DNA from: Podarcis filfolensis
Taxonomy: Eukaryota
Length of the DNA: 64,000 nt
Reading direction: 5' to 3' (one strand)
NCBI GenBank assembly: GCA_964270895.1
Contig: OZ185441.1
Under the pieces are notes generated by a model. The model was not told the DNA's origin, did no database searches, and was given only the letters and a program-made list of their open reading frames with translations. The position numbers and the translations under genes are program-made. Positions 11,515-61,911 of this stretch are shown here, piece by piece; positions within the stretch are counted from its first letter, which is position 1, and every line of letters begins with the position of its first letter.

Positions 11515-13047
11515 ATCTCTCTGCTCCTATGAGTACATTAGGCAGATAGTATAAATGACCGTACAAGGTGCAGGTCAGCACTGGAATGTGCTTCTGGATG
11601 TTTCAGGTGACATTCTATTGATTCAAGTGAAACATTGCTGCCATTAAGGTGACACTGCAAGATTACACTGTGGCCCGAGTAGCGGCCGAAGGGTTAAAGG
11701 CAAACCTTACGAGACTGGCAGTGGGCCAAGTGATGTAACCCACGGAGGAAGGCATACAGACTCGTGAAAATGATCTAAGAGGCATTTGAGGAAGTACAAG
11801 TCATAACGGAATGGCCGCCATGGATCAATAGTTGTCTTTTGAAAATAAATACAATTTCAGGCCATATTTGACGGTGAACTGAAAATGATCCTTGCACGAC
11901 CATTTATTTACTTAAACTCGGTAGGAACTGCCAAGCTGTATTAGAGTAAGATATAAAATGCTAGTGCCACACTATTTTAATCAGGTGCAGTCGGAGGCAA
12001 AAGGATATTTTTTGGGGGGTGGGGTGGGGGGAGGTTATTTCACGATTCTCACATCTCAGCCATAACCCTTGGCCAGCTGTGCAGAAATGATTTTCCTCCT
12101 TCTGGATGTTATTAGGCGACTCTGCTCATTTCAAAGCCACAACAGTAACTTTGTTTTCCTTTTCCTTTCCCGCCCTGCTTTTTACACGAGGTCAAAGCAA
12201 CGTGGCTTGTTCCTTATGCATTTCATATGACATTACAAAATAGGCATATTGAATTTGGCTCAGCCTTTCCTTAGAACTATCCATCTTTATTAGCAGAGAA
12301 GCTGGGGATTTGGGAAAGGAGAACACAAGTTATTTGAACAAGGTGCGACAGCCTGAGCATCCTGTCTGTCAAAACAAGGCAGGGGAAGGCACCTTTCTTG
12401 CCCGCTGACACAGAGACGCAGCTGCTGAAGAGGAATCCTTAGCCAGAAGATGGCAGTGTGAGAGTGTGGATTACAAACCCGCCCGCTTCCCCTCTCACAG
12501 GAAACAAGCCGAATAAAAATAGATTTTGACTTGCAAGCATTTATTAAGTAAGCCATTAGTCGCAGCCAGCCTCCTTCTCCCTAAAGATGGGCAACCCACA
12601 AGTATTGTTTAACAAGTGCTCTTTCCCCCTGCCCCTGAAACAAAGGCTGCAGTCCTCCTAAGCATACTAGGTAAAGCCCATTGAAATCCACTGAAATTGC
12701 ATCCAAGGACCCATGGTTAGGATTGGGCAGCTTGCCAGAGAACTATTTAAAGGAGAACTTAGGCGTTCCGCAATTGCTCCGTGAATTCAGAGCTATGCAA
12801 GATGCCACTGAACCTTAGCATCTCTCAAAGCCTCGGGAAAGGCTGCCTTGTAAAAGCAACCTTCATTTCTCTCACACACAAACACAAAGACAGAACCCTA
12901 AGTAACCCATGCCATGCAGTCATTCAGCGAAGAAATTCGGAGAAATTTCAAAAAGCTTCAGGATTCGTTCAGCTTTAGCATAACCTTCTACACACCAGAA
13001 CCTACAAGGTCCAAATTATGCACTACAAGACATTACAGTGCCTAATA

Positions 13048-13278
13048 CAGTGGTACCTTGGGTTAAGAACTTAATTCGTTCTGGAGGTCCGTTCTTAACC
13101 TGAAACTGTTCTTAACCTGAGGTACCACTTTAGCTAATGGGGCCTCCTGCTGCCGCCGCACGATTTCTGTTCTCACCCTGAAGCAAAGTTCTTAACCCGA
13201 GGTACTATTTCTGGGTTAGTGGAGTATGTAACCTGAAGCGTCTGTAACCTGAAGCATCTGTAACCCGAGGTACCACTG
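13048..13278 (+). mobile_element. Tigger-like MITE, copy 2
   Basis: TA-CAGTGGTACCTTGGGTTA...TAACCCGAGGTACCACTG-TA. Confidence 0.9.
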
Positions 13279-14188
13279 TACCAGCCTGTGTCTTATCCCC
13301 AAGTCTCCCTGGAAATAGTTCATGATCAATGACACGACGTCATCATCTTCAGAGGTAAACTCTTTGTTGGCTAGCATTCGCAGGGAGGGAGAGTGTATTG
13401 TCCTTGCCTACTAAGTACTACTGGAGGAGAGAGAGTAGCCCTTTTAGGCTTTCCCTGAAATGTGTGATCTAGTCATTTTATGGAATATGAATGGTACAAC
13501 AGAAGAAATGATTTTTTGATTTTTAGTTTATTGGTTCTAATCTTTTGCATTTTATCTTGTTTTATCTTATTGTACGGCAGCTTTCATTGTTGTTGCAAAG
13601 TGGTTTCTAAATCTGTGAAGAAATACAATAAATTTCTCCCACACCCTTTAAAGAAGGCGTATGCAGCTAGAGGTACATTGGTAGATTTCTGGTAGATCTC
13701 TCTGGGTGATTGACAGCAAATCGGCAAGGGGTTCTGAAGCACAACTGTTTTATCAATAGCAACAACTTCCCCCACTTAAATTAGGTCGCTGCAATGAAGG
13801 AAGCCAACCACAGGGGTCTAGTTTTGTGCAAAAGGACTGTGACCTCAGCTCAGTTCTGGTCCTGAAAATAAACGTGGGCTCAGAATGCACACAGATACAC
13901 CTCATTATTCAATTCTAACTTTATGTCTCAGAATTCTAGTAAAAAAACAAAAAACAAAGTAGATTCAAGTCAAAAAGCATGATTTCTGCCCCCACCCCCT
14001 GCTTCAGAGTATTTGTTCACAAGTGACAGCTCTTTCTTTTACAAAAGGCAGCCATGGGGGTCACCTTGATCCATATAGAGAGAGGGGGAAGCATTGCCAT
14101 TTTCCCACTGAAATTGTCCCTCTCCCACGCTATTTTGCCCCTCCAATGTACTACCTGTGTCAAATAACACCTGCTGGGCAGTGGAGAG

Positions 14189-14978: not shown

Positions 14979-15424
14979 TTGTTGTTGTTTTTTAATCGTT
15001 TAGTTGTGTCCGACTCTTCGTGACCCCATGGACCAGAGCACACCAGGCACTCCTGTCTTCCACTGCCTCCTGCAGTTTGATCAAACTCATGCTGATAGCT
15101 TCGAGAACACTATCCAACCATCTTGTCCACTGTCGTCCCCTTCTCCTTGTGCCCTCCATCTTTCCCAACATCAGTGTCTTTCCAGGGAGTCTTCTCTTCT
15201 CATTAGGTGCCAAATTATTGGAGCCTCAGCTTCAGGATCTGTCCTTCCAGTGAGCACTCAGGGCTGATTTCCCTAAGAATGGATAGGTTTGATCTTCTTG
15301 CAGTCCATGGGACTCTCAAGAGTCTCCTCCAGCACCATAATTCAAAAGCATCAATTCTTCGGAGATCAGCCTTCTTTATGGTCCAGCTCTCACTTCCATA
15401 CATCACTACTGGGAAAACCATAGC
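14979..15424 (-). mobile_element. Bov-B LINE 3' fragment
   Basis: Minus-strand frames MVFPVVMYGSESWTIKKADLRRIDAFELWCWRRLLRVPW and KTLMLGKMEGTRRRGRQ; (CAA)n tail at about 14979. Confidence 0.92.
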
Positions 15425-23680: not shown

Positions 23681-23814
23681 GAATGAATCAGAAGAATCTT
23701 TATTTGCATCAGCCACTAGCCGTAGCAATAAAATAAAATAAAATGAAGATATAGGTAAAAACTTAATTATACAAAGTGCATTCTGGAGGTTTACATCAAT
23801 AATCAAATAATAGA

Positions 23815-24056
23815 CAGTCGTACCTCGGGTTAAGTACTTAATTCGTTCTGGAGGTACGTTCTTAACTTGAAACTGTTCTTAACCTGAAGCACCACTTTAG
23901 CTAATGGGGCCTCCTGCTGCTGCGCCACCACCGGAGCACGATTTCTGTTCCCATCCTGAAGCAAAGTTCTTAACCCGAGGTACTATTTCTGGGTTAGCGG
24001 AGTCTGTAACCTGAAGTGTATGTAACCTGAAGCGTATGTAACCTGAGGTACCACTG
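23815..24056 (+). mobile_element. Tigger-like MITE, copy 3
   Basis: CAGTCGTACCTCGGGTTA...GAGGTACCACTG-TA. Confidence 0.88.
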
Positions 24057-25794
24057 TATCTTATTCTAATTGCCCCTGCTATTTTTTTTTTTTTTGCACT
24101 GTTTGCTATTATTTTGATCTGCACTGTTTGCTATTATCTTGATCTGCTAGTAGCAATGGTTGAGCAACCTGGTATGGATAGTAGTAGAGGGGTAATAACC
24201 TCACTCCCCAAATCTCCAAAATTGGAGTTTGCAAAGAGATTAGACCAGATGTTCCTCCAGGTCCCCTCCAGCTCTACAATTCCACGGTTCTGTGATTCCC
24301 TCTTTCTACTATGACTGGTTTCAGATGCCACACTGTTGGAAGGGCAACAGTAAGTGCAGGTGTCATGCGATTCCTGCCTTCCTGCTTATTTCATCCAAGA
24401 TGTAGCCACCTTAGGAATGGAAAACCTTTTGTGAACGTACCTCCTTGTCTGATTTCCTGCCCCCTCCCTCCCAGCTCTTTACAATCTATTGTGATGGAAC
24501 GAGCCATTTAAAGATACATCCTCATGCCTTCATTCTGTCAGCAGCACTGCTGCCTGTCATAAACACATCTGAAAAAGGAAAGTGCAAAATGGTATCATGT
24601 CCACCATTTTTAATGGCATAAACCCAGGCCTGAAAAAGAGGTGTCCCTTTGCAGGATCGGCTGCTGATTAACACGTCTAGCGATGTTGTGAATGAACGAA
24701 ATCTCGAGAGGTGTCTTGAGGTTAGAGTTAGGGTCACTTCTGCTCTTTGGCTTGGTGACAGCCTATTTCTCCCCCCTATTAATCCTTTCCCTCACTCGCT
24801 GCCAGGGCCTGTGTTATGACTTTTCTGGTACAGGTGCTAACCTTTGCTGTGCCTCAGCCTTGCTTACTTTTGTGAGATCTTGACGTTTGCTAAAGCTGCT
24901 CCTCTGTCTGAACTGTTGTTCCCCAGGAATTCTAAAAGGTGTGTGTGTGTGCTACATTGTGCTATGTAACACACAGTGGCTTGAAAAGAGAGTGTGACTT
25001 ACTTTTTAACTAGTACCATGACCTCTTGGCAACCAGGTAGCCCAAAGCACCTGGAAGCAATTGTGCCTTTTAACATATATAACACTAAGTCCATATAAAA
25101 TAAATCACATTCCAAAATTGTGGATTTTTATGGCTGTTACCTTTATATAACACTTAAGTATGAAATGGAAAATTGTAATCGGGGCTCCGTAAGATTCGGA
25201 GATTGAAAGGGGCCTTCAGGGTCATTATTATCATCATCACCACCACCTCCGCTTTGATCATGAGCAGCCAAAGCCTTTATAATTAATCCTAAAACCAGAA
25301 TGCATGTAAGCATAATAAAACTTCAGGAAAAGAAAATTCCAACTAGGCAACAAATAGTGGCTTGGGCAACCAAGTCAGATGGGTGGGGTATAAATAATAA
25401 CAACATTATTATTATTAACAAATAGCAAAGGTAGAAATGAAATAGAAAGGTAGAAAATTGTAGAAATGGGCTGAACCAGGAAGGCTGAATTTTGCTAAAT
25501 TTTGTGTCCCTCGAAAAACAGCCTCGATCGTTGGCTTTTTCTTTCCTCAGGGTGGCATTCGGCATAAAAATGCTTGCAGAATGATTTCAAGTTTTTTATT
25601 TTATTTAAATCTAAGCATTTCTGTACGCTAGTGTGCAGCACTGGGGCTTTAAAAGTTTTATTGTGCCTTAGCACATAGCAACAGGCTTATAAAGGCTTTT
25701 AATTCTGAAATTGTTGCTCAAAGTCAGGCATTTATGCAGATCAGCTCACATCAGCCAGACTGAGAGAGAGGTGTGAGCAATGTTCTTGCAATTA

Positions 25795-31414: not shown

Positions 31415-31650
31415 GTACATTTTTGTTAAGAACTTAATTCGTTCTGGAGGTCTGTTCTTAATCTGAAACTGTTCTTAACCTGAAGACCACTTTAGCTAAT
31501 GGGGCCTCCTGTTGCCGCTGTGCCGCCGGAGCACGATTTCTGTTCTCATCCTGAAGCAAAGTTCTTAACCCGAGATACTATTTTGGGTTAGCGGAGTCTG
31601 TAACCTGAAGCGTATGTAACCTGAAGTGTATGTAACCTGAGGTACCACTG
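31415..31650 (+). mobile_element. Tigger-like MITE, copy 4 (left TIR decayed)
   Basis: Internal sequence matches copies 1-3; right end GAGGTACCACTG-TA. Confidence 0.85.
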
Positions 31651-32273
31651 TATGTTTTTATGCTTTAATTGCTCTAAGGTGCTTTGATATATTTTTATGG
31701 TATAGCAGCACACAAATATTTATTTATAAATAAAGGAATTAGTGATAATAATATATAACCAGGGAAGGCAACAATCCCTCAGGAGTAATCTTTCTGGTTT
31801 CACATACCAAAGCTTGGTGAAACCAGAGCTGTTTATGGGATGCAGCTAACGACAACATCATGGCGCATAAACTTACCCAGAATAAAGACTAGGCCCCCGG
31901 GGCAATCTTAAAATGAATCATATTTCTTTGTATTTACTTTACATTGATGGATAATACTACCTTTTGGTCTTGGGATTTATGGTGGTGATGAGGAAAAACA
32001 TGTATCAAGTTGAGACTAAAGATGGATTCTGAGTAAATGTTGGCATCAGTCTGTCTCAAAAGAAAATGGAGTGTGCCTCCAGGGATGAAGTCAAACCACT
32101 TGTGTTAGCAGCACTGAAGTGATCTACCCAGGGCACAAGCCTGGTTAGTGTGTATGGAAGTCCTGGGCTGCCTAGACAACAAGACCCCACTGTTAGTCTT
32201 GCCGATGTGGTCCAAAGGAAAGCAGAGCAATATGTTTGGCACCAGCTGCAGAAGTTGTTGGAAGGAGGTGTGC

Positions 32274-32854
32274 TGTTCTGGTCCCGGGGGGGGGGGGTTA
32301 CCGTGCGGCGTGGTCCATGTCCGGTCCGAGGCTGAAGCGGGGTCCAAGGCAGGGAGTCGGGCGTGGTCAGGAACTCTGGCAGAAGAGCAGGACAGGGTGC
32401 CGGCAGGAACAGGTAACCAACGATGTTGCTCCCGCAACCTGAGACTGGGCGGGCTGGCCTTTATCTCCTCTGAGGCATAGGGTGGCCCCGGTCCACAGGT
32501 GACTCGCCTCTCCTGGCCTGGAGGCGAGCAATCCTCCTGCGAGAACTTAGTTCCCTCCGCCTCTCTGCCCTGAGCCTCTGCAACTCAGGAGAGGCTGGAG
32601 GGTTACTGGACCCAGAGGCAACCTCACCTTCCCCTGACAGGGCTGGGAGAGGAGCACCTGCAGGCAATGGGTCCTCGATCACCTCCGGAGCCAGAACAGA
32701 TTCAGCTGGTGTCTGCTCCTGAGGATCCGGCACAGGTGAAGGCCCTTCAGGTTCAAGCTCCAGCCCCTGCTCAGCCGGCCCTGGAGGCGGGGACTGCTCT
32801 GCGGGCTGGGATTCCTCAGGTTCAGCCTCTGAATCAGATTCCCTGGCCATCACA
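32274..32854 (-). mobile_element. Solo LTR (family C, 581 bp), probably Gypsy-type
   Basis: Minus-strand termini TGTGATGG...CAGAACA; 5-bp TSD TGTGC/TGTAC (one mismatch); colinear with the second copy at 56314-56922. Confidence 0.88.
32461..32853 (-). CDS. Putative LTR (U3)-encoded 130-codon acidic/Pro-rich protein with basic C-terminus
   Basis: Frame opens at LTR nucleotide 2 (GTG ATG) and ends at a TAA overlapping the TATA-like GATAAA. 101/130 codons give identical residues to the copy at 56315-56707, with no indels. Expression is not demonstrated. Confidence 0.3.
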   Translation of the reverse strand: MMARESDSEAEPEESQPAEQSPPPGPAEQGLELEPEGPSPVPDPQEQTPAESVLAPEVIEDPLPAGAPLPALSGEGEVASGSSNPPASPELQRLRAERRRELSSRRRIARLQARRGESPVDRGHPMPQRR

Positions 32855-33459
32855 TGTACAAGGTGCCATCCAACCGTCTTAGGAACTTACCCTAGGAACT
32901 TTACTCCTTAGCCCTTTCTTCTCCCAAAGACGTCCTACAAGGCAACGGAGGTTCAAGATCAGAGTTTTCCTTCTGGATGAGCTACCTTCCCAGGTTGACG
33001 AGCTCCATCTGCCCCTCACTTCCGTCTACAGCTTGTGAAGTAGCTGCCTTCTTGACCAGTGGACCCACTATTGGTCTCGTCCACTGGAGCCTGTCTTCAC
33101 GTGCAGGGGAAGTCCCTAACTCACTGAGGGTTTGAGACCCATCAGCTGCCCTCACCTGCTTTAGCTGGCCAGCCAAAGCTGTTCCAGGGATGTGGCAACT
33201 ATTGTATGCTGACAGCTTCTACGAGCCACAGGTGAGAGCTGAGTGCAGGGTGGGGACCAAAGGTGGACAAACTACCTCAGAAGGATGTCCACCACCAGAG
33301 GGACTACCCCTCTCCTAACTCCCTCCCCCCGAATAAATGTGCATTTGATAATTATGGACTGCAAGGAGGCAAGGCTGGTGAAAGAGCTCTGGCAGCTCTG
33401 TTGCCTCACCATCACCCCTCATCTTCCTTTGCGTCTACCACTGCTGACCCCCACTTGTT

Positions 33460-38300: not shown

Positions 38301-38805
38301 TCTTGTTGTTATTTGTTGTTTAGTCGTTTAGTCGTGTCCGACTCTTCGTGACCCCATGGACCAGAGCACGCCAGGCACTTCTGTCTTCCACTGCTTTCTG
38401 CAGTTTGGTCAGACTCATGCTGGTAGCTTCGAGAACACTATACAACCATCTCGTCCTCTGTCGTCCCCTTCTCCTTGTGCCCTCCATCTTTCCCAACATC
38501 AGGGTCTTTTCCAGGGAGTCTTCTCTTCTCATGAGGTGGCCAAAGTATTGGAGCCTCAGCTTCACAATCTGTCTTTCCAGTGAGCACTCAGGGCTGATTT
38601 CCTTAAGAATGGATAGGTTTGCTCTTCTTGCAGTCCATGGGACTCTCAAGAGTCTCCTCTAGCACCATAATTCAAAAGCATCAATTCTTCGGCGATCAGT
38701 CTTCTTTATGGTCCAGCTCTCACTTCCATACATCACTACTGGGAAAACCATAGCTTTTACTATACGGACCTTTGTTGGCAAGGTGATGTCTCTACTTTTT
38801 AAGTA
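38301..38805 (-). mobile_element. Bov-B LINE 3' fragment
   Basis: KSRDITLPTKVRIVKAMVFPVVMYGSESWTIKK...RVPWTARRANLSILKEISPECSLE...VHGVTKSRTRLND; (CAA)n-like tail. Confidence 0.93.
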
Positions 38806-43594: not shown

Positions 43595-43738
43595 CTCCGT
43601 CAGTAGAGTGTGAGACTCTTAATCTCAAGGTCATGGGTTTGAGCCCCATATTGGGCGAAAAATTCCAGCATTGCAAGGGATTGGGACCAGATAACCTTTG
43701 TGGTCCCTTCCAACTCTTAAAGTCTATGATTCTATGAT
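43595..43738 (+). mobile_element. tRNA-Lys-derived SINE with CR1-type 3' tail
   Basis: GTCAGTAGAGTGTGAGACTCTTAATCTCAAGGTCATGGGTTTGAGCCCCATATTGGGCG is a decayed tRNA-Lys(CTT); followed by GGTCCCTTCCAACTC...(CTATGATT)2, the CR1 octamer tail. Confidence 0.8.
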
Positions 43739-44070
43739 TTAACCACAGAGCCTAGGGCTTGCTGATCAGAAGGTTGGCGGTTCGAATCCCTGCAACGGGG
43801 TGAGCTCCCGTTGCTCTGTCCCTGCTCCTGCCCACCTAGCAGTTCGAAAGCTTGTCAAGTGCAAGTAGAAGTAGTACCTTCCAGCGGGAAGGTAAACGGC
43901 GTTTCCATGCGCTGCTCTGGTTCACCAGAAGCGGCTTACCTGTAGTCATGCTGGCCGCATGACCTGGAAGCTGTATGCTGGCTCCCTCGGCCAGTAAAGT
44001 GAGATGAGCACCACAACCCCAGAGTCGTCCGCGACTGGACCTAACGGTCAGGGGTCCCTTTACCTTTACT
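43739..44070 (+). mobile_element. Sauria SINE (5' end displaced by the tRNA-Lys SINE)
   Basis: AACCACAGAGCCTAGGGCTTGCTGATCAGAAGG...GGGGTCCCTTTACCTTTAC. Confidence 0.9.
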
Positions 44071-44321
44071 TAATACGTTTAGGGTGTCATTCCCTTTTCA
44101 AGTGCTAAGAGTGAGAAGGTAGTTTCAGGATTTTTGTCCCAAATATAATCTGACCTACTTTTCAATATTTCTCTCCCAATGTGCCTCCATTCTCTCTCTT
44201 TTTAAAGTTTAGCTAAGGTGTTATTTTATTGGGGTCAGGCTTCATTTGAAGTTCTGCTACTTTATAGAGGATTCCAAGAGAGACTTATTCAATATTATTA
44301 TTGTTATTAGTATTATTATTA

Positions 44322-44563
44322 CAATGGTATCTCAGGTTAAGAACTTAATTCGTTCTGGAGGTCTGTTCTTAACCTGAAACTGTTCTTAACCTGAAGCACC
44401 ACTTTAGCTAATGGGGCCTCTCGCTGTTGGCGCGCCGCCAGAGAATGATTTCTGTTCTCATCCTGAAGCAAAGTTCTTAACCCAAGGTACTATTTCTGGG
44501 TTAGTGGAGTCTGTAACCTGAAGCGTCTGTAACCTGAAGTGTCAGTAACCCGAGGTACCACTG
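44322..44563 (+). mobile_element. Tigger-like MITE, copy 6
   Basis: TA-CAATGGTATCTCAGGTTA...CCCGAGGTACCACTG-TA. Confidence 0.88.
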
Positions 44564-47500
44564 TAGTAGTAGTATTAGTATACCACCCTTCATCTGAAGA
44601 TCCCAGGACAGAAAAATAAAAAATGATGCCAGGTAGACTCAGATAGACTCAGATAGGTAGGAATGAGATGTTTACTCTGGATAGACATAGGACAAATAAA
44701 GGAATGAGGATGAAACCGTAGACATTAAATTGGTTGTAGAATCAGTATAAGGAAGGCTGTAAGGAGGGCAGAACTTTAAGTATCACAGTCCAACTCCATT
44801 CCCACAGCTTTTATTACTCTGATGTCCCATTGTCTTGCATCTTTCCAAGTGAACTGCTTGAGCAGATGCCTCGTTTCAGTACTATATGCAAAACCTACAC
44901 ATGTAAATCTTCCATGATAGTAGGGAATAAGATTTGTTCTCCATCTGAGATATAATTAAATTCGTGTGACTAGTACTAATGCTAGACAATACCTTACAGT
45001 AAAATATATAAGGAAAATGAACAAAGCAGTACTGAGATATAATCTTAAGCAATCGCATTAAAGGCAGTTCTAGAATAACAGGAAAACTAGATTAGTATTC
45101 ATTACGTTTTTGAGATATATATTAAGATGTAGTGTTTCTTTTTCAAGGGAAGACGTTGCTTCTGCTGAAAAGGAATTACTATTTATTTCTATTTAATGTG
45201 CTTTATGGAAGAATCAGATGTGCAGAAAGCAGTTCTTGCTACTTCTTCTCATTTGATTTTCTTTTTTTTGCCATATCCGTGTTGCCTAATAATATTATAA
45301 TAGACCTTCCTCAGTTTTTTAAAGTGTTCTCATTTTTAAGTGCATGTTTTTAAGAATAATTTTTCCTTTTCCCAATAATTCAATACATTCTCTCATATTG
45401 TGGTCCCCCCCCCCGATTCATTTTGCGCCTCATATAATTGAACTGGGAATGCTTTTTATGATATGGAATGCCCCCCAACCCCCCCCAGCAACGATGGGGG
45501 AGATACCTAGTCATACCCCCCACATCTGGTTTTTGATGTTGACGTAAGAACTATGCCGCTGACATCTAGTTTTCAGACGTTTGTGTGTGAGAGAGGCACT
45601 ACCTGTAATGTAAAATGGTGGAACCACAACACAAGTTTCAGCAAGAACTAGAGGAGTGTGGATGACTAACTCCACTGAAACGCAATGCATCGGAGCGACG
45701 TGGGAGTTTCCAAAGGGGTTGGTTTAGCTGTAAGACCACATACACACAAGCAAGTCCTAACTACATGTCGCTATCTTAAAGTGATGGGCATGGCTGGGTG
45801 AACCAGCCCTATAGAATCACATGCTTTTTTTTAACCACAGAAGCCTAGCGTATAGCTGCAGCCTATATGACCACAAGCTGCTGAAAAATTTAGCAAAATT
45901 TTAGGCTCATGTCACAATATCCCAGAGCACATAAAACTGACATAAACTCAGTGCTTTCTGTTTGCTTGTTTTTTGCTTTTTGTACAGGACGTCGACTGGG
46001 TCTCTTAGGTGATGAGCAGGGTAGAAAGATGATAGGTTGATTACCCCACTGTTGTGTTTATTGTGCTGCACTGATGCATCTTTCACAATTTTTACTATCG
46101 CAGTCCAGCGTTGCTGTGGAGAACAAGGAAGACCCATAAAGATGACATGTTTGCTGTCCTGCTCCCTGACGGGACTTCAATGTATTACCTGGATCTAATT
46201 ATCTCATCTTCAGCTGACAGAGAGGCTACCATAGAACATTTTCCATCACTGGGGGGCTCAGCCAAGCTTCCAATGGGCTGTCTAATAGTATGATATATTT
46301 TTGGACCTCCTGCTCATTGGATGAACAGGCTGGGGTAAATCATGTATTGACCTCCAAGCATTTATAAACTGTGGAACATCACATTCTCATCAGAGCCACA
46401 GGGGCAGTAAACTATAGTTTCTCGGCTGTGAAACATGGTTTTGGTTATGCACTGCGTTACTAGGGTTTGTGCCTAAACAACTATACATCATTTGTGGCAC
46501 TTGTCGCCTTCTTTATTGAAAGGCAAAACAAAGAGTTGAGGACAAAAATCATTACTACTTTAGCAATTTTTCACAAAATGCTTTTGTTTTGTACTTGACA
46601 CACAGATGGGACGTTGCACCACAGTATGGATGATGTATGGTGCGTGACAAATTTCATTTCCTTTATAAAACAAGGATCATAAGAGTGGACAAATTTGGGG
46701 GGAAGAGATTGCATGGGGGCTTTTAGTATGGGTTAAAGGAATGTAATTTTTTTTTCTGTCTTTAAGGTTGCAGGCTTTAATTGGTTTACTCGGTTGATCA
46801 ACTAAAGGTTTAGTTGATAAATCAGTAGTGTCCAAGTTTAATTGGTGGGACTGTGAGTTAAGGGAACACATGCTATATAGAGTAGCTGATTTTTGAGGCT
46901 ATTCTGGTTTTGGTGTTTAGAATAAAGGAATAAATGGGAAATGTGACTAGATTGCATTTCCTTCTGACCATGAGTGGTACCTTATTTTTCTTTCTTTCTT
47001 GATAAATTGTAAGATATTTCATGCTTCCTTTCATATCTCAAAAATGTTATTATATGGATTAGGAAAACTGTGGTATACTAATACTGATTTGAGTCTTCCT
47101 GTGCTCATGCTTGTATGGCCAAACCTGAACAGAAAGGGGGGAAAAGTAATCCATATACAACAGAGATATATTGACAGACTCGAGGTAGCCATGTGGTGCA
47201 TAAGTTCAAAATATCTGCAATGGAGGAAACCCTAAAAGGTGAGAGCCACAGAACATCCCCATAGAACTCTAAGGAAGGAATGTTGAGAGGCTGAGGGGGT
47301 GTTCAGGCAAATGCCTGAACATCTGAGGTCTTAAACAACAGAGACACAGGCAGGGATGAGCATGAGAGTTCTACCCCCAATATGCTCAGGCATGTAAGCT
47401 CCTATTTAGGCATTTGTGCAATTAGTCAGAAGGTTTGTGGAGTGTGCTCTAAGTGTGTTCAGTTTAATGGACTTAACAACCTCTTGTGAGGCAGGGTTTC

Positions 47501-55430: not shown

Positions 55431-56313
55431 GCCTGTGAGGAGGCATGGAAATGCCCCACCTTAAAAAATTCCACCATTCTTAAACAAAACTTTTTGCTTT
55501 CCCCACAAAACTTCCCCATACTTCCCCATATCTAGCTTGCTCTACCTTGGCCCTCTGCTTAACTCTGCCCCAAACCAGCCTTCCTCCACCACCTCTTCTT
55601 GGGCCCTGCCACTTGCTTACTAGATGGCTGACTGTTTTGGTTTATAAACTTTCTTTTTTGGGGAAAGAGGAGTATCACATAACTACTTGCCATGTTACAA
55701 AGCTCTCTGACGCAGCAGTTCGGCCACCCACACTTTTTCCTTCCAAGTATTTAAGGAAGTGTGGCAGATAAGAGCCAGCATCAAAGAGCCTTGCTCCTCA
55801 TCCTGCTTCCCCCCCCCCCCCAGCTGACCCCACCCTTAGGCTTACAATTCCAAAGACAAAATAAAACAATATAAGCCCAAGGGTGGGAAAAGCTCTCTAC
55901 AAGGAAACAGCACCAGCGGCAAGGGACTTCAGCATAGCCTCCCAGCTCCTGGAATGCCTGGAAAGACAAAATAAAACAAGCCATTAAACATCTTCTAAAA
56001 GTTGTTATAAGGGCAAAAGGATGTTCATGGAGGAGGAACAGATTCATTGAAGGCAAAGGATCTGGGGTGGGAAGTGATTTTGTGCTGCTGTCCGGAGTCC
56101 AAGTTCCCAGCTTGATAACACAGTAAGCGTAGGTGAGGATTTATTGCAGAAACAAACAGATAGCTTCGGACAGCTCTAATGCAGCTGCCAGCATTATCAC
56201 TCAAGATGACCCTTCTGAAGACTGCTTCCTGTGACTACAGAATATATTGAACTTTCGCACCTTACGTCTTTTGTTTTGCTTCCTGTCTAGAAGCCCTCCC
56301 GCCAACTCCTTGG

Positions 56314-56922
56314 TGTGATAGCCTGGGATTTGGACTCAGAGGCTGAACCTGAGGAATCCCAGCCTGCACAGGAGTCCCCGCCTCCAGAACCAGCTGAGCC
56401 GGGGCTGGGGCATGAGCCTGAAGGGTCCTCACCTGTGCTGGATCCTCAGGTGCAGGCACCAGCTGAGTCTGCTCTGGTTTCTGTGGTGATGGAGGACCCA
56501 TTGCCTGCAGGTGCTCCACTCTCAGCCCTGTCAGGGGAAGCTGAGGTTGCCTCTGGGTCCGGTAACCCTCCAGCCTCTCCTGAGCTGCAGAGGCTCAGGG
56601 CAGAAAGGTGGAGGGAACTAAGTTCCCGCAGGAGGAGTGCTCACCTCCAGGCCAGGAGAGGCAAGTCACCTGTGGACCGGGGCCGCCCTATGCCTTGGGG
56701 CAGATAAAAGCCAGCCAGCCCCAGCCCCAGGTTGCGGGAGCAACATTGTTGGTAGCCTGTTCCTGCCTGCACCCTGTCTTGCTCTTTTGCCAGAGTTCCT
56801 GACCTCACCCGACTCCCTGCCTTGGACCTAGCTTCAGCTTTGACGGACAGCCTCCATATCGCACCCTCGACCTCGGACTGGACTTGGACCTCGCTGCACG
56901 GTTAACCCTCTGGACCAGCACA
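56314..56922 (+). mobile_element. Solo LTR (family C, 609 bp) nested in LTR B
   Basis: Termini TGTGATAG...CCAGCACA; perfect 5-bp TSD CTTGG (56309-56313, 56923-56927); homologous to 32274-32854. Confidence 0.92.
56315..56707 (+). CDS. Putative LTR (U3)-encoded 130-codon frame, second copy
   Basis: Same frame, length and stop as 32461-32853; codon 2 is ATA here (ATG in the other copy), so there is no early ATG in this copy. Confidence 0.25.
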   Translation: MIAWDLDSEAEPEESQPAQESPPPEPAEPGLGHEPEGSSPVLDPQVQAPAESALVSVVMEDPLPAGAPLSALSGEAEVASGSGNPPASPELQRLRAERWRELSSRRRSAHLQARRGKSPVDRGRPMPWGR

Positions 56923-57774
56923 CTTGGACTGATTGGATCATCTCCAACCCCTTCCGTTTCTGATTGACTCTCCCTGTGTCTGTTCACACCTATTTGAGCT
57001 TCTGGAGAGCTTTGGCTGTGGTCCAGCCTGCTCTCAGCCACTGCCTCATCAGCTGGTCCATAAAGGTCAGGAAGAGCTGGCAGCTGCAGACTTCGGCTCT
57101 CCCCTGTCTGATTGACATCAACACTTCTCTGTTCCTGGCTGCTTTCAGCAGTTGGCTGCAAACCTTCGCTCGGAGCTGGCTCATTCCTGATAGCTGCCTG
57201 TTCATGTTCAAGCAAAAGAATGCATGAATAGAATACATGCATGTGCGTATGTGAATTGATGTGTGGCTGTGTGGGCTATCCTTGGCCCCACTCACTTTTG
57301 GTGCTGGCTCCACCCACTGCTGGCATGCAGACTCCGAACAATTTCCCCATGTCCCTCAGGGGAGAAAAGGTTCCCTGGTGCTGACCACTGTGTTGAATGA
57401 GTTGGAGAATTCAGATGTGATACTAAACTGTAGTAGACTGTTTTCTGCACAATCATGTGTGAATGAAAGCTTCCATTTCAAACTAACTGCAGTTTGTCAT
57501 TTTGTCTGAACCAGGACAAACCGTGGTTCATTTAAACAATGGTTAGTCAAAACAAGTCCGGATCAAACAATAACTTCTGATCTTGATTAGTTCAGAGAAA
57601 CTTTAGTAAAAACTAAGCACACTTCCTGAATCAGAAGAAATTAACAACTGTGGTTAATTTAAATTAGAAGTGCATGCTTTTGATCCTGTGATAACAGTTA
57701 GACCAGAGGAAGAAGGAGGAAGGCTTGAGATAAAAGCTCATGGACATGACACAAAACCATAGTTTAATGCAGAG

Positions 57775-61551: not shown

Positions 61552-61911
61552 GAGGGATGCGAGGGGTGCTGTGGGTTAAACCACAGAGCCTAGGACTTGC
61601 AGATCAGAAGGTCGGCGGTTTGAATCCCTGCAACGGGGTGAGCTCCCATTGCTCGGTCCCTGCTCCTGCCAACCTAGCCGTTCAAAGGCACATCAAAGTG
61701 CAAGTAGATAAATAGGTACCGCTCCGGTGGGAAGGTAAACGGCATTTCCGTGAGCTGCTCTGGTTTACCAGAAGCGGCTTAGTCATGCTGGCCACATGAC
61801 TCGGAAGCTGTACGCCGGCTCCCTCGGCCAATAAAGCGAGATGAGCGCCGCAACTCCAGAGTCGGACCTAACGACTAGACCTAATCGTTAGGGGTCCCTT
61901 TACCCTTACCT
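61552..61911 (+). mobile_element. Full-length Sauria SINE
   Basis: GGGATGCGAGGGGTGCTGTGGGTTAAACCACAGAGCC...GGGGTCCCTTTACCCTTACC with a 13-bp TSD TATTCATAAACTT (61539-61551, 61912-61924). Confidence 0.93.

Follow-up and report, generated by a model that had tools for sequence, protein, structure and literature searches.

A reading frame that fills the U3 of LTRs in a lizard chromodomain Gypsy family is coding and probably forms the C-terminal tail of Gag-Pol

Coding sequence that overlaps the U3 of the 3′ LTR and is copied into both LTRs is known from MMTV sag, HIV nef and foamy virus bel, each of them a gene of its own, expressed from spliced RNA in an env-bearing retrovirus. Few studies have addressed integration-site choice by vertebrate Gypsy elements, whose chromodomain is commonly regarded as the entire targeting module. 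The closest precedent for the family described here is plant CRM group A, whose polyprotein is described as extending into the 3′ LTR (PMC3059260), and self-priming has been described for the Tf1/Sushi group (PMC6317226). The Tf1/sushi chromoviruses of fungi and vertebrates (sushi-ichi and Amn; V-clade) share domain order, chromodomain, self-priming PBS and LTR ends with the lizard element, which differs from them by a selected frame of 120–143 codons filling U3. It resembles sag, nef and bel in the coding overlap with U3, but lacks env and has a frame that continues Pol. The comparison with CRM group A is closer, since the polyprotein also enters the 3′ LTR in some genomic copies of the lizard family and in most Podarcis models; however, CRM group A has a CR motif in place of the chromodomain and is primed by tRNA-Met, whereas the lizard element keeps a canonical chromodomain before the LTR-encoded part and primes itself from a PBS matching its own LTR. 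Its tail, of low complexity with an RRSARL core, is also unlike that of CRM group A. The lizard family would work like CRM group A but is not a member of it. Our searches, which covered part of the literature, found no report of a U3-encoded tail in a vertebrate chromovirus.

The window, a stretch of 64,000 nucleotides from Podarcis filfolensis, contains two solo LTRs of the family, here called LTR A and LTR B (Table 1). A first-pass annotation made from the sequence alone had located both with TG...CA ends, and had described in each a frame opening at LTR nucleotide 2, uninterrupted for 130 codons and closed by a TAA inside GATAAA, with 101 of 130 residues identical between the two and 9 synonymous against 29 non-synonymous changed codons. 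All of these details proved exact. The accompanying claim that each LTR has its own 5-bp target-site duplication held for LTR B, whereas that of LTR A is not a perfect repeat. LTRs A and B are 88.8% identical across 525 nt and each lies about 5% from its own nearest relative; because they belong to different subfamilies and have different flanks, they are independent insertions, as the annotation had supposed. The frame of LTR A is divided into an acidic part (residues 1–84, 19 acidic and 1 basic) and a basic part (residues 85–130, 14 basic and 5 acidic). LTR B has ATA at nt 5–7, where most copies of the family have ATG.

Table 1 Features of the two solo LTRs in the window.
Feature	Position	Strand	Remarks
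Solo LTR A (subfamily A)	32274..32854	-	581 nt
U3 frame of LTR A	32461..32853	-	130 codons + stop; homologous to C-terminal tail of Podarcis Gag-Pol models
HMGN-like hexamer position of LTR A, codons 106-111	32521..32538	-	RRIARL
GATAAA of LTR A, TATA-like hexamer containing the stop codon	32460..32465	-	may also be poly(A) signal
Self-priming site of LTR A, complementary to PBS	32426..32435	-	predicted transcript start (U3/R border)
Target-site duplication of LTR A, upstream copy	32855..32859	-	4/5 match
Target-site duplication of LTR A, downstream copy	32269..32273	-	4/5 match
Solo LTR B (subfamily B)	56314..56922	+	609 nt
U3 frame of LTR B	56315..56707	+	130 codons + stop
HMGN-like hexamer position of LTR B, codons 106-111	56630..56647	+	RRSAHL
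GATAAA of LTR B, hexamer containing the stop codon	56703..56708	+	
Self-priming site of LTR B	56734..56743	+	predicted transcript start
Target-site duplication of LTR B, upstream copy	56309..56313	+	5/5
Target-site duplication of LTR B, downstream copy	56923..56927	+	5/5

Base shuffles of this 63% GC region (n = 5000) left the given frame open in 2.0% of cases and any of the six frames in 13%, so that a single open frame is weak evidence and evidence at the level of the family is needed. Pfam searches assigned no family to the frames of LTRs A and B and returned no match for eighteen other long frames of the window. An ESM Atlas search gave no usable match and is uninformative. The window also holds other interspersed repeats, namely two pairs (14985–15424 with 38313–38754, and 43738–44069 with 61576–61909) and a repeat of 230–250 nt in about seven copies (e.g., 13043–13280, 23814–24058, 31425–31659, and 44317–44565).

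LTRs A and B are the ends of a chromodomain-bearing, self-priming Gypsy family of Tf1/sushi type. A first look at the P. filfolensis genome gave 2651 candidates for LTR A, 40 of which were scored. Among the 30 loci closest to LTR A (itself included), 28 are solo-like, one is a 3′ LTR that follows a polypurine tract (PPT) and an integrase-chromodomain region, and one is a 5′ LTR that precedes gag-pol. In the Podarcis protein model P0030, Pfam domains are ordered gag, protease, RT, RNase H, integrase, SH3, and chromodomain (PF00385), all above Pfam cut-offs, followed by the tail, and tblastn recovered the same order in copies from the animal’s own genome, where the chromodomain adjoins the PPT in 44 of 47 loci. 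Only 38–56 nt separate the chromodomain from the LTR, and there is no env. Protein searches with the tail matched only Podarcis-labelled Gypsy proteins, and a search of representative proteins returned two matches, both of Podarcis type; the nearest Pol matches outside lizards are amphibian and fungal chromodomain Pols. Domain order, chromodomain and Podarcis protein matches thus bear out the earlier suggestion of a squamate Gypsy-like element, whose solo LTRs are spread over many contigs.

The element’s own LTR contains, 26–27 nt after GATAAA, a site complementary to the PBS. For 13 of 18 PBS candidates the best match falls at this site, 176–188 nt before the end of the LTR, and in 6 of 18 it is a perfect 10 nt. 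We infer from this that transcripts start near LTR nt 420, which would place the frame wholly in U3; a full-length transcript could then be read through it in the 3′ LTR only. In the R/U5 of 82 copies from the four subfamilies, including 32274–32435 and 56734–56922 of the window, eight common poly(A) hexamers were all absent beyond the predicted start. The single GATAAA may therefore combine the roles of TATA box, stop codon and poly(A) signal, with a very short R.

Whether the frame is coding was addressed with 120 LTRs gathered with four queries, of which 113 were kept after removal of three probable duplicates, three 5′-truncated copies and one partner LTR. They form four subfamilies with frames of 120 (Y), 130 (A), 130 (B), and 143 (D) codons, all running from nt 2 to the same hexamer. 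The frame is still open to its end in 24/29, 16/27, 22/28, and 13/29 copies of the four subfamilies, approximately as expected of neutral decay. Every one of the five gap blocks shared in U3 is a multiple of three (18, 18, 3, 30, and 3 nt), whereas shared gaps beyond the stop are of mixed lengths and insertions private to single copies in U3 measure 1–2 nt.

Net dN/dS, taken as pairwise divergence between subfamilies minus diversity within them, was 0.28–0.44 for D against Y, A and B with bootstrap intervals below 1, the three comparisons representing one common branch. The +1 and +2 shifted frames gave 1.4–1.8 in the same comparisons. Values within subfamilies were 0.55–0.88, and a chromodomain control, one D copy against nine, gave 0.15–0.18. 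Regions picked after viewing the alignment differ in constraint: codons 1–16 have a dN/dS of 0.00–0.14 in all six subfamily pairs and the basic core 0.14–0.50, while the acidic, proline-rich linker (0.56–1.70) drifts with its frame preserved. The excess of third-position changes holds after removal of CpG sites (p 0.0003–0.001), is not significant for transversions alone, and has a counterpart in an R/U5 control in arbitrary register, where third columns are also in excess in the D comparisons (0.35–0.42 vs 0.22–0.33; 45–58 sites). Among the nearer subfamilies the Y–A pair shows no third-position excess, and pooled dN/dS for Y, A and B was 0.69 (interval 0.38–1.21), so that selection is not significant there. 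An open frame would survive neutrally in about 2% of cases over the D distance, and in about 15% over the Y/A/B distance before indels are counted.

The U3 frame is a coding stretch under purifying selection against the distant subfamily D. The first-pass annotation had proposed a coding function and had named dN/dS near 1 between subfamilies and frequent non-triplet indels as findings that would speak against it; dN/dS against D lies well below 1 and the shared indels are triplets. Its own reservation, that 9 synonymous against 29 non-synonymous codons are no sign of purifying selection, is accounted for by the state of the window copies: both are dead solo LTRs, and neutral drift has produced most of the differences between them.

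The idea that the frame is an accessory gene in its own right, after the manner of sag, nef or bel, is probably wrong. Where the element reads through the LTR start, the frame directly continues that of the integrase-chromodomain region. Six of the 15 members of the P0002 cluster of Podarcis proteins reach the chromodomain, and five of these continue in frame over the PPT into the tail, as does P0035, making six of seven Podarcis chromodomain models; these are gene models, which favour open frames. Two members of the cluster are complete Gag-Pol-tail models of 1551 and 1559 aa, and further in-frame length variants occur among the Podarcis models. The connection upstream across the PPT, which had been put forward as a possibility, is thus found in most Podarcis models and in some genomic copies.

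The genomic junctions are more varied. Of 47 loci examined, 39 were classified by hand labelling; three of the remainder had no chromodomain at the expected place and five no recognisable LTR start. Pol enters the LTR in frame in 11 of 39 junctions, eight of which are open from the chromodomain into U3, and the only junction of subfamily D is among those in frame. In the 28 others the polyprotein does not extend into the tail as it does in CRM group A: 15, the commonest class, have a Pol stop at LTR nt 3–5 overlapping the ATG at nt 5–7, and the third frame accounts for 13. A short, labile G-rich tract is the source of these differences. In-frame junctions make up 10 of 24 in a young clade and 0 of 14 in an older A/B-like clade (Fisher p 0.006) and belong to less diverged copies (p 0.02), while they do not differ significantly from other copies in LTR-pair identity (p 0.13). 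Junction state shows no clustering on the tree (17 changes, against 18.7 after shuffling) and a C-run in U5 takes nine lengths among 24 A copies, so such runs appear to be unstable from copy to copy. Assembly error is unlikely to be the sole cause of this variation, as junction length variants were present in contigs from three of four other DNA runs, contigs too fragmented to show a dominant class. We infer slippage of individual copies away from an in-frame state, although the commonest junction class is the stop. Twenty-five of 40 PPT-LTR junction matches lie on a single 43-Mb contig of the 1.5-Gb assembly, as would be expected of a non-recombining (W-like) chromosome.

We consider it likely that the U3 frame is the last 120–143 residues of Gag-Pol, which would supply the integrase with a flexible acidic arm terminated by a basic, HMGN-like motif for chromatin binding. 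Pol would be read on from the integrase chromodomain over the PPT into the U3 of the 3′ LTR. The replicating elements would be those in frame, and many genomic copies would have lost the frame by slippage at the G-rich junction; reverse transcription would give both LTRs a copy of the frame, which recombination between the LTRs would leave to decay neutrally in solo LTRs. This would account for the thousands of solo LTRs in the genome that come with a ready reading frame and an ATG in strong context. Three protein models (P0001, P0003, and P0004) suggested instead that U3 might be an N-terminal extension of Gag. We rejected this because transcripts are predicted to start downstream of the U3 in the 5′ LTR, and gag opens at a separate ATG that follows the PBS.

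Three other explanations deserve weighing against the integrase tail. That the frame has no coding function, being a GC-rich U3 that is poor in stops by composition and conserved as promoter DNA, would agree with the proportion of shuffles holding some open frame of such length and with the lack of Pfam or Atlas matches. It is largely refuted by a dN/dS signal specific to one frame and by shared indels that are triplets only, and the low neutral survival over the D distance and the high dS in the most conserved protein blocks also oppose it; we regard it as highly improbable. A less remote, though still unlikely, possibility is that the tail is a relic, coding in the common ancestor of the subfamilies and later dispensable, so that the recent lineages A and B, to which both window copies belong, replicated with Pol ending at the LTR start. 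The absence of in-frame junctions from the older A/B-like clade, a dN/dS among Y, A and B not significantly below 1, and the neutral survival of about 15% over that distance all point this way. However, the 30-nt deletion of Y is in frame, codons 1–16 and the core are still constrained in the Y/A/B pairs, most in-frame junctions sit in the youngest clade, and the Podarcis models add further length variants that keep the frame.

The strongest competitor, which we nevertheless judge improbable, is that the frame encodes a separate small protein or a regulated minor product and that Pol normally stops at LTR nt 3–5. The product could arise if translation restarted at the overlapping ATG or shifted frame within the G-rich tract, or it could be made from a spliced RNA, and it would correspond to the accessory gene first proposed. 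The stop overlap is the largest single junction class, 105 of the 113 LTRs keep the ATG, flanked by G at −3 and +4, codons 1–16 are the most constrained part of the frame, and the inverted repeat of U5 differs from the U3 end at exactly the A of the ATG in all four subfamilies. The overlap of stop and ATG nonetheless derives from the integrase recognition motif of this group of LTRs, given as TGTYANR for Sushi (PMC3601003), and on that account needs no special explanation; we have accordingly downgraded TGATG as a purpose-built stop-restart signal. The sister family described below has the same architecture without the ATG, junction states are unclustered on the tree, and no splice joint was found in the element in four RNA runs, at a depth inside the element of only about 0–5. 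In these runs reads from U3 came mostly from solo LTRs within other transcripts, with loose ends at LTR nt 1, and internal element reads were sparse and, in the two bulk RNA runs, mostly from one strand.

The tail has a conserved basic core that ends in RRSARL, the commonest form of the hexamer in all four subfamilies, which occurs in 73 of 113 copies and has one change in each window copy. Binding to the acidic patch of the nucleosome is ascribed to RRSARLSA in HMGN proteins, and Dsup is described as binding with the looser PPRRSSRLT (PMC12487698). The lizard tail has in common with HMGN and Dsup a hexamer of this kind in a disordered, proline-flanked basic segment. It differs in matching only six of the eight residues of RRSARLSA, the next two being QA, KA, RA or WA, and in its context of an integrase tail. 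The tail might be a disordered arm that sets an arginine anchor behind the chromodomain and would hold the integration complex on chromatin. Binding of the RRSARL core to the H2A-H2B acidic patch, acting with the chromodomain in tethering or targeting integration, is a tentative proposal of rather low probability, as the match covers six of the eight residues. Arg-rich hexamers are common, and a role of the core in nuclear localisation or as a nucleic-acid-binding patch would fit equally well.

When the genome was searched with an amphibian Pol, another chromodomain Gypsy family came to light that is very young, its LTR pairs being 97–100% identical. Its Pol frame runs 100–109 codons into the 3′ LTR, about 25 nt beyond its own self-priming site. 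A junction could be recognised in 36 of the 37 loci inspected, and 33 of the 36, many of them near-identical copies, were open from the chromodomain through the U3 part; in these the polyprotein extends into the LTR, as in CRM group A. No ATG is found at its LTR start. The U3 part shows pairwise dN/dS of 0.23–0.66, with eight of ten intervals below 1. The tails of the two families have the same acidic-then-basic layout; hhalign detected no homology between them (probability 0.2%), and a common origin is therefore not claimed. The sister family supports the architecture of a tail encoded in U3.

Between its chromodomain and the PPT, the sister family has a pre-LTR tail with an aromatic helix-like stretch, an acidic Ser/Thr linker, and FxGF, which is present twice in 33 of 36 copies when the variant LxGF is counted. 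Motifs of FxGF type that interact with a TND are described as binding LEDGF/HRP2 (PMC9987994), and the stretch matches such a motif, making it a candidate LEDGF/HRP2 binder. Two amphibian Gypsy Pol models (P0006 and P0007) continue past a PPT-like stretch by about 90 and more than 200 residues, in sequence not homologous to the lizard tail. A U3-encoded arm under purifying selection, and two families with unrelated tails, offer short candidates that can be tested, the HMGN-like hexamer and the FxGF of the sister family. It is conceivable, though we would not favour it at present, that lizard chromoviruses at least twice turned LTR promoter DNA into integrase-tail code mimicking host chromatin motifs, with a U3-encoded anchor of HMGN type here and FxGF motifs plus an unrelated U3 tail in the sister family. 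These would steer integration from behind the chromodomain, converging on plant CRM and on the lentiviral use of LEDGF.

The frame may also have consequences for host genes. LTRs of one subfamily also supply a candidate splice donor: a donor-like GTGAGT lies directly after the RRSARL core in 19 of 29 D copies. Host gene models have already absorbed the LTR frame as a first exon. A Podarcis muralis RefSeq model (P0034) begins with the ATG of the LTR and contains the tail as far as the donor-like site, from which it continues in other sequence, and this structure, together with the position of GTGAGT, suggests that solo LTRs have been exonised in host genes.
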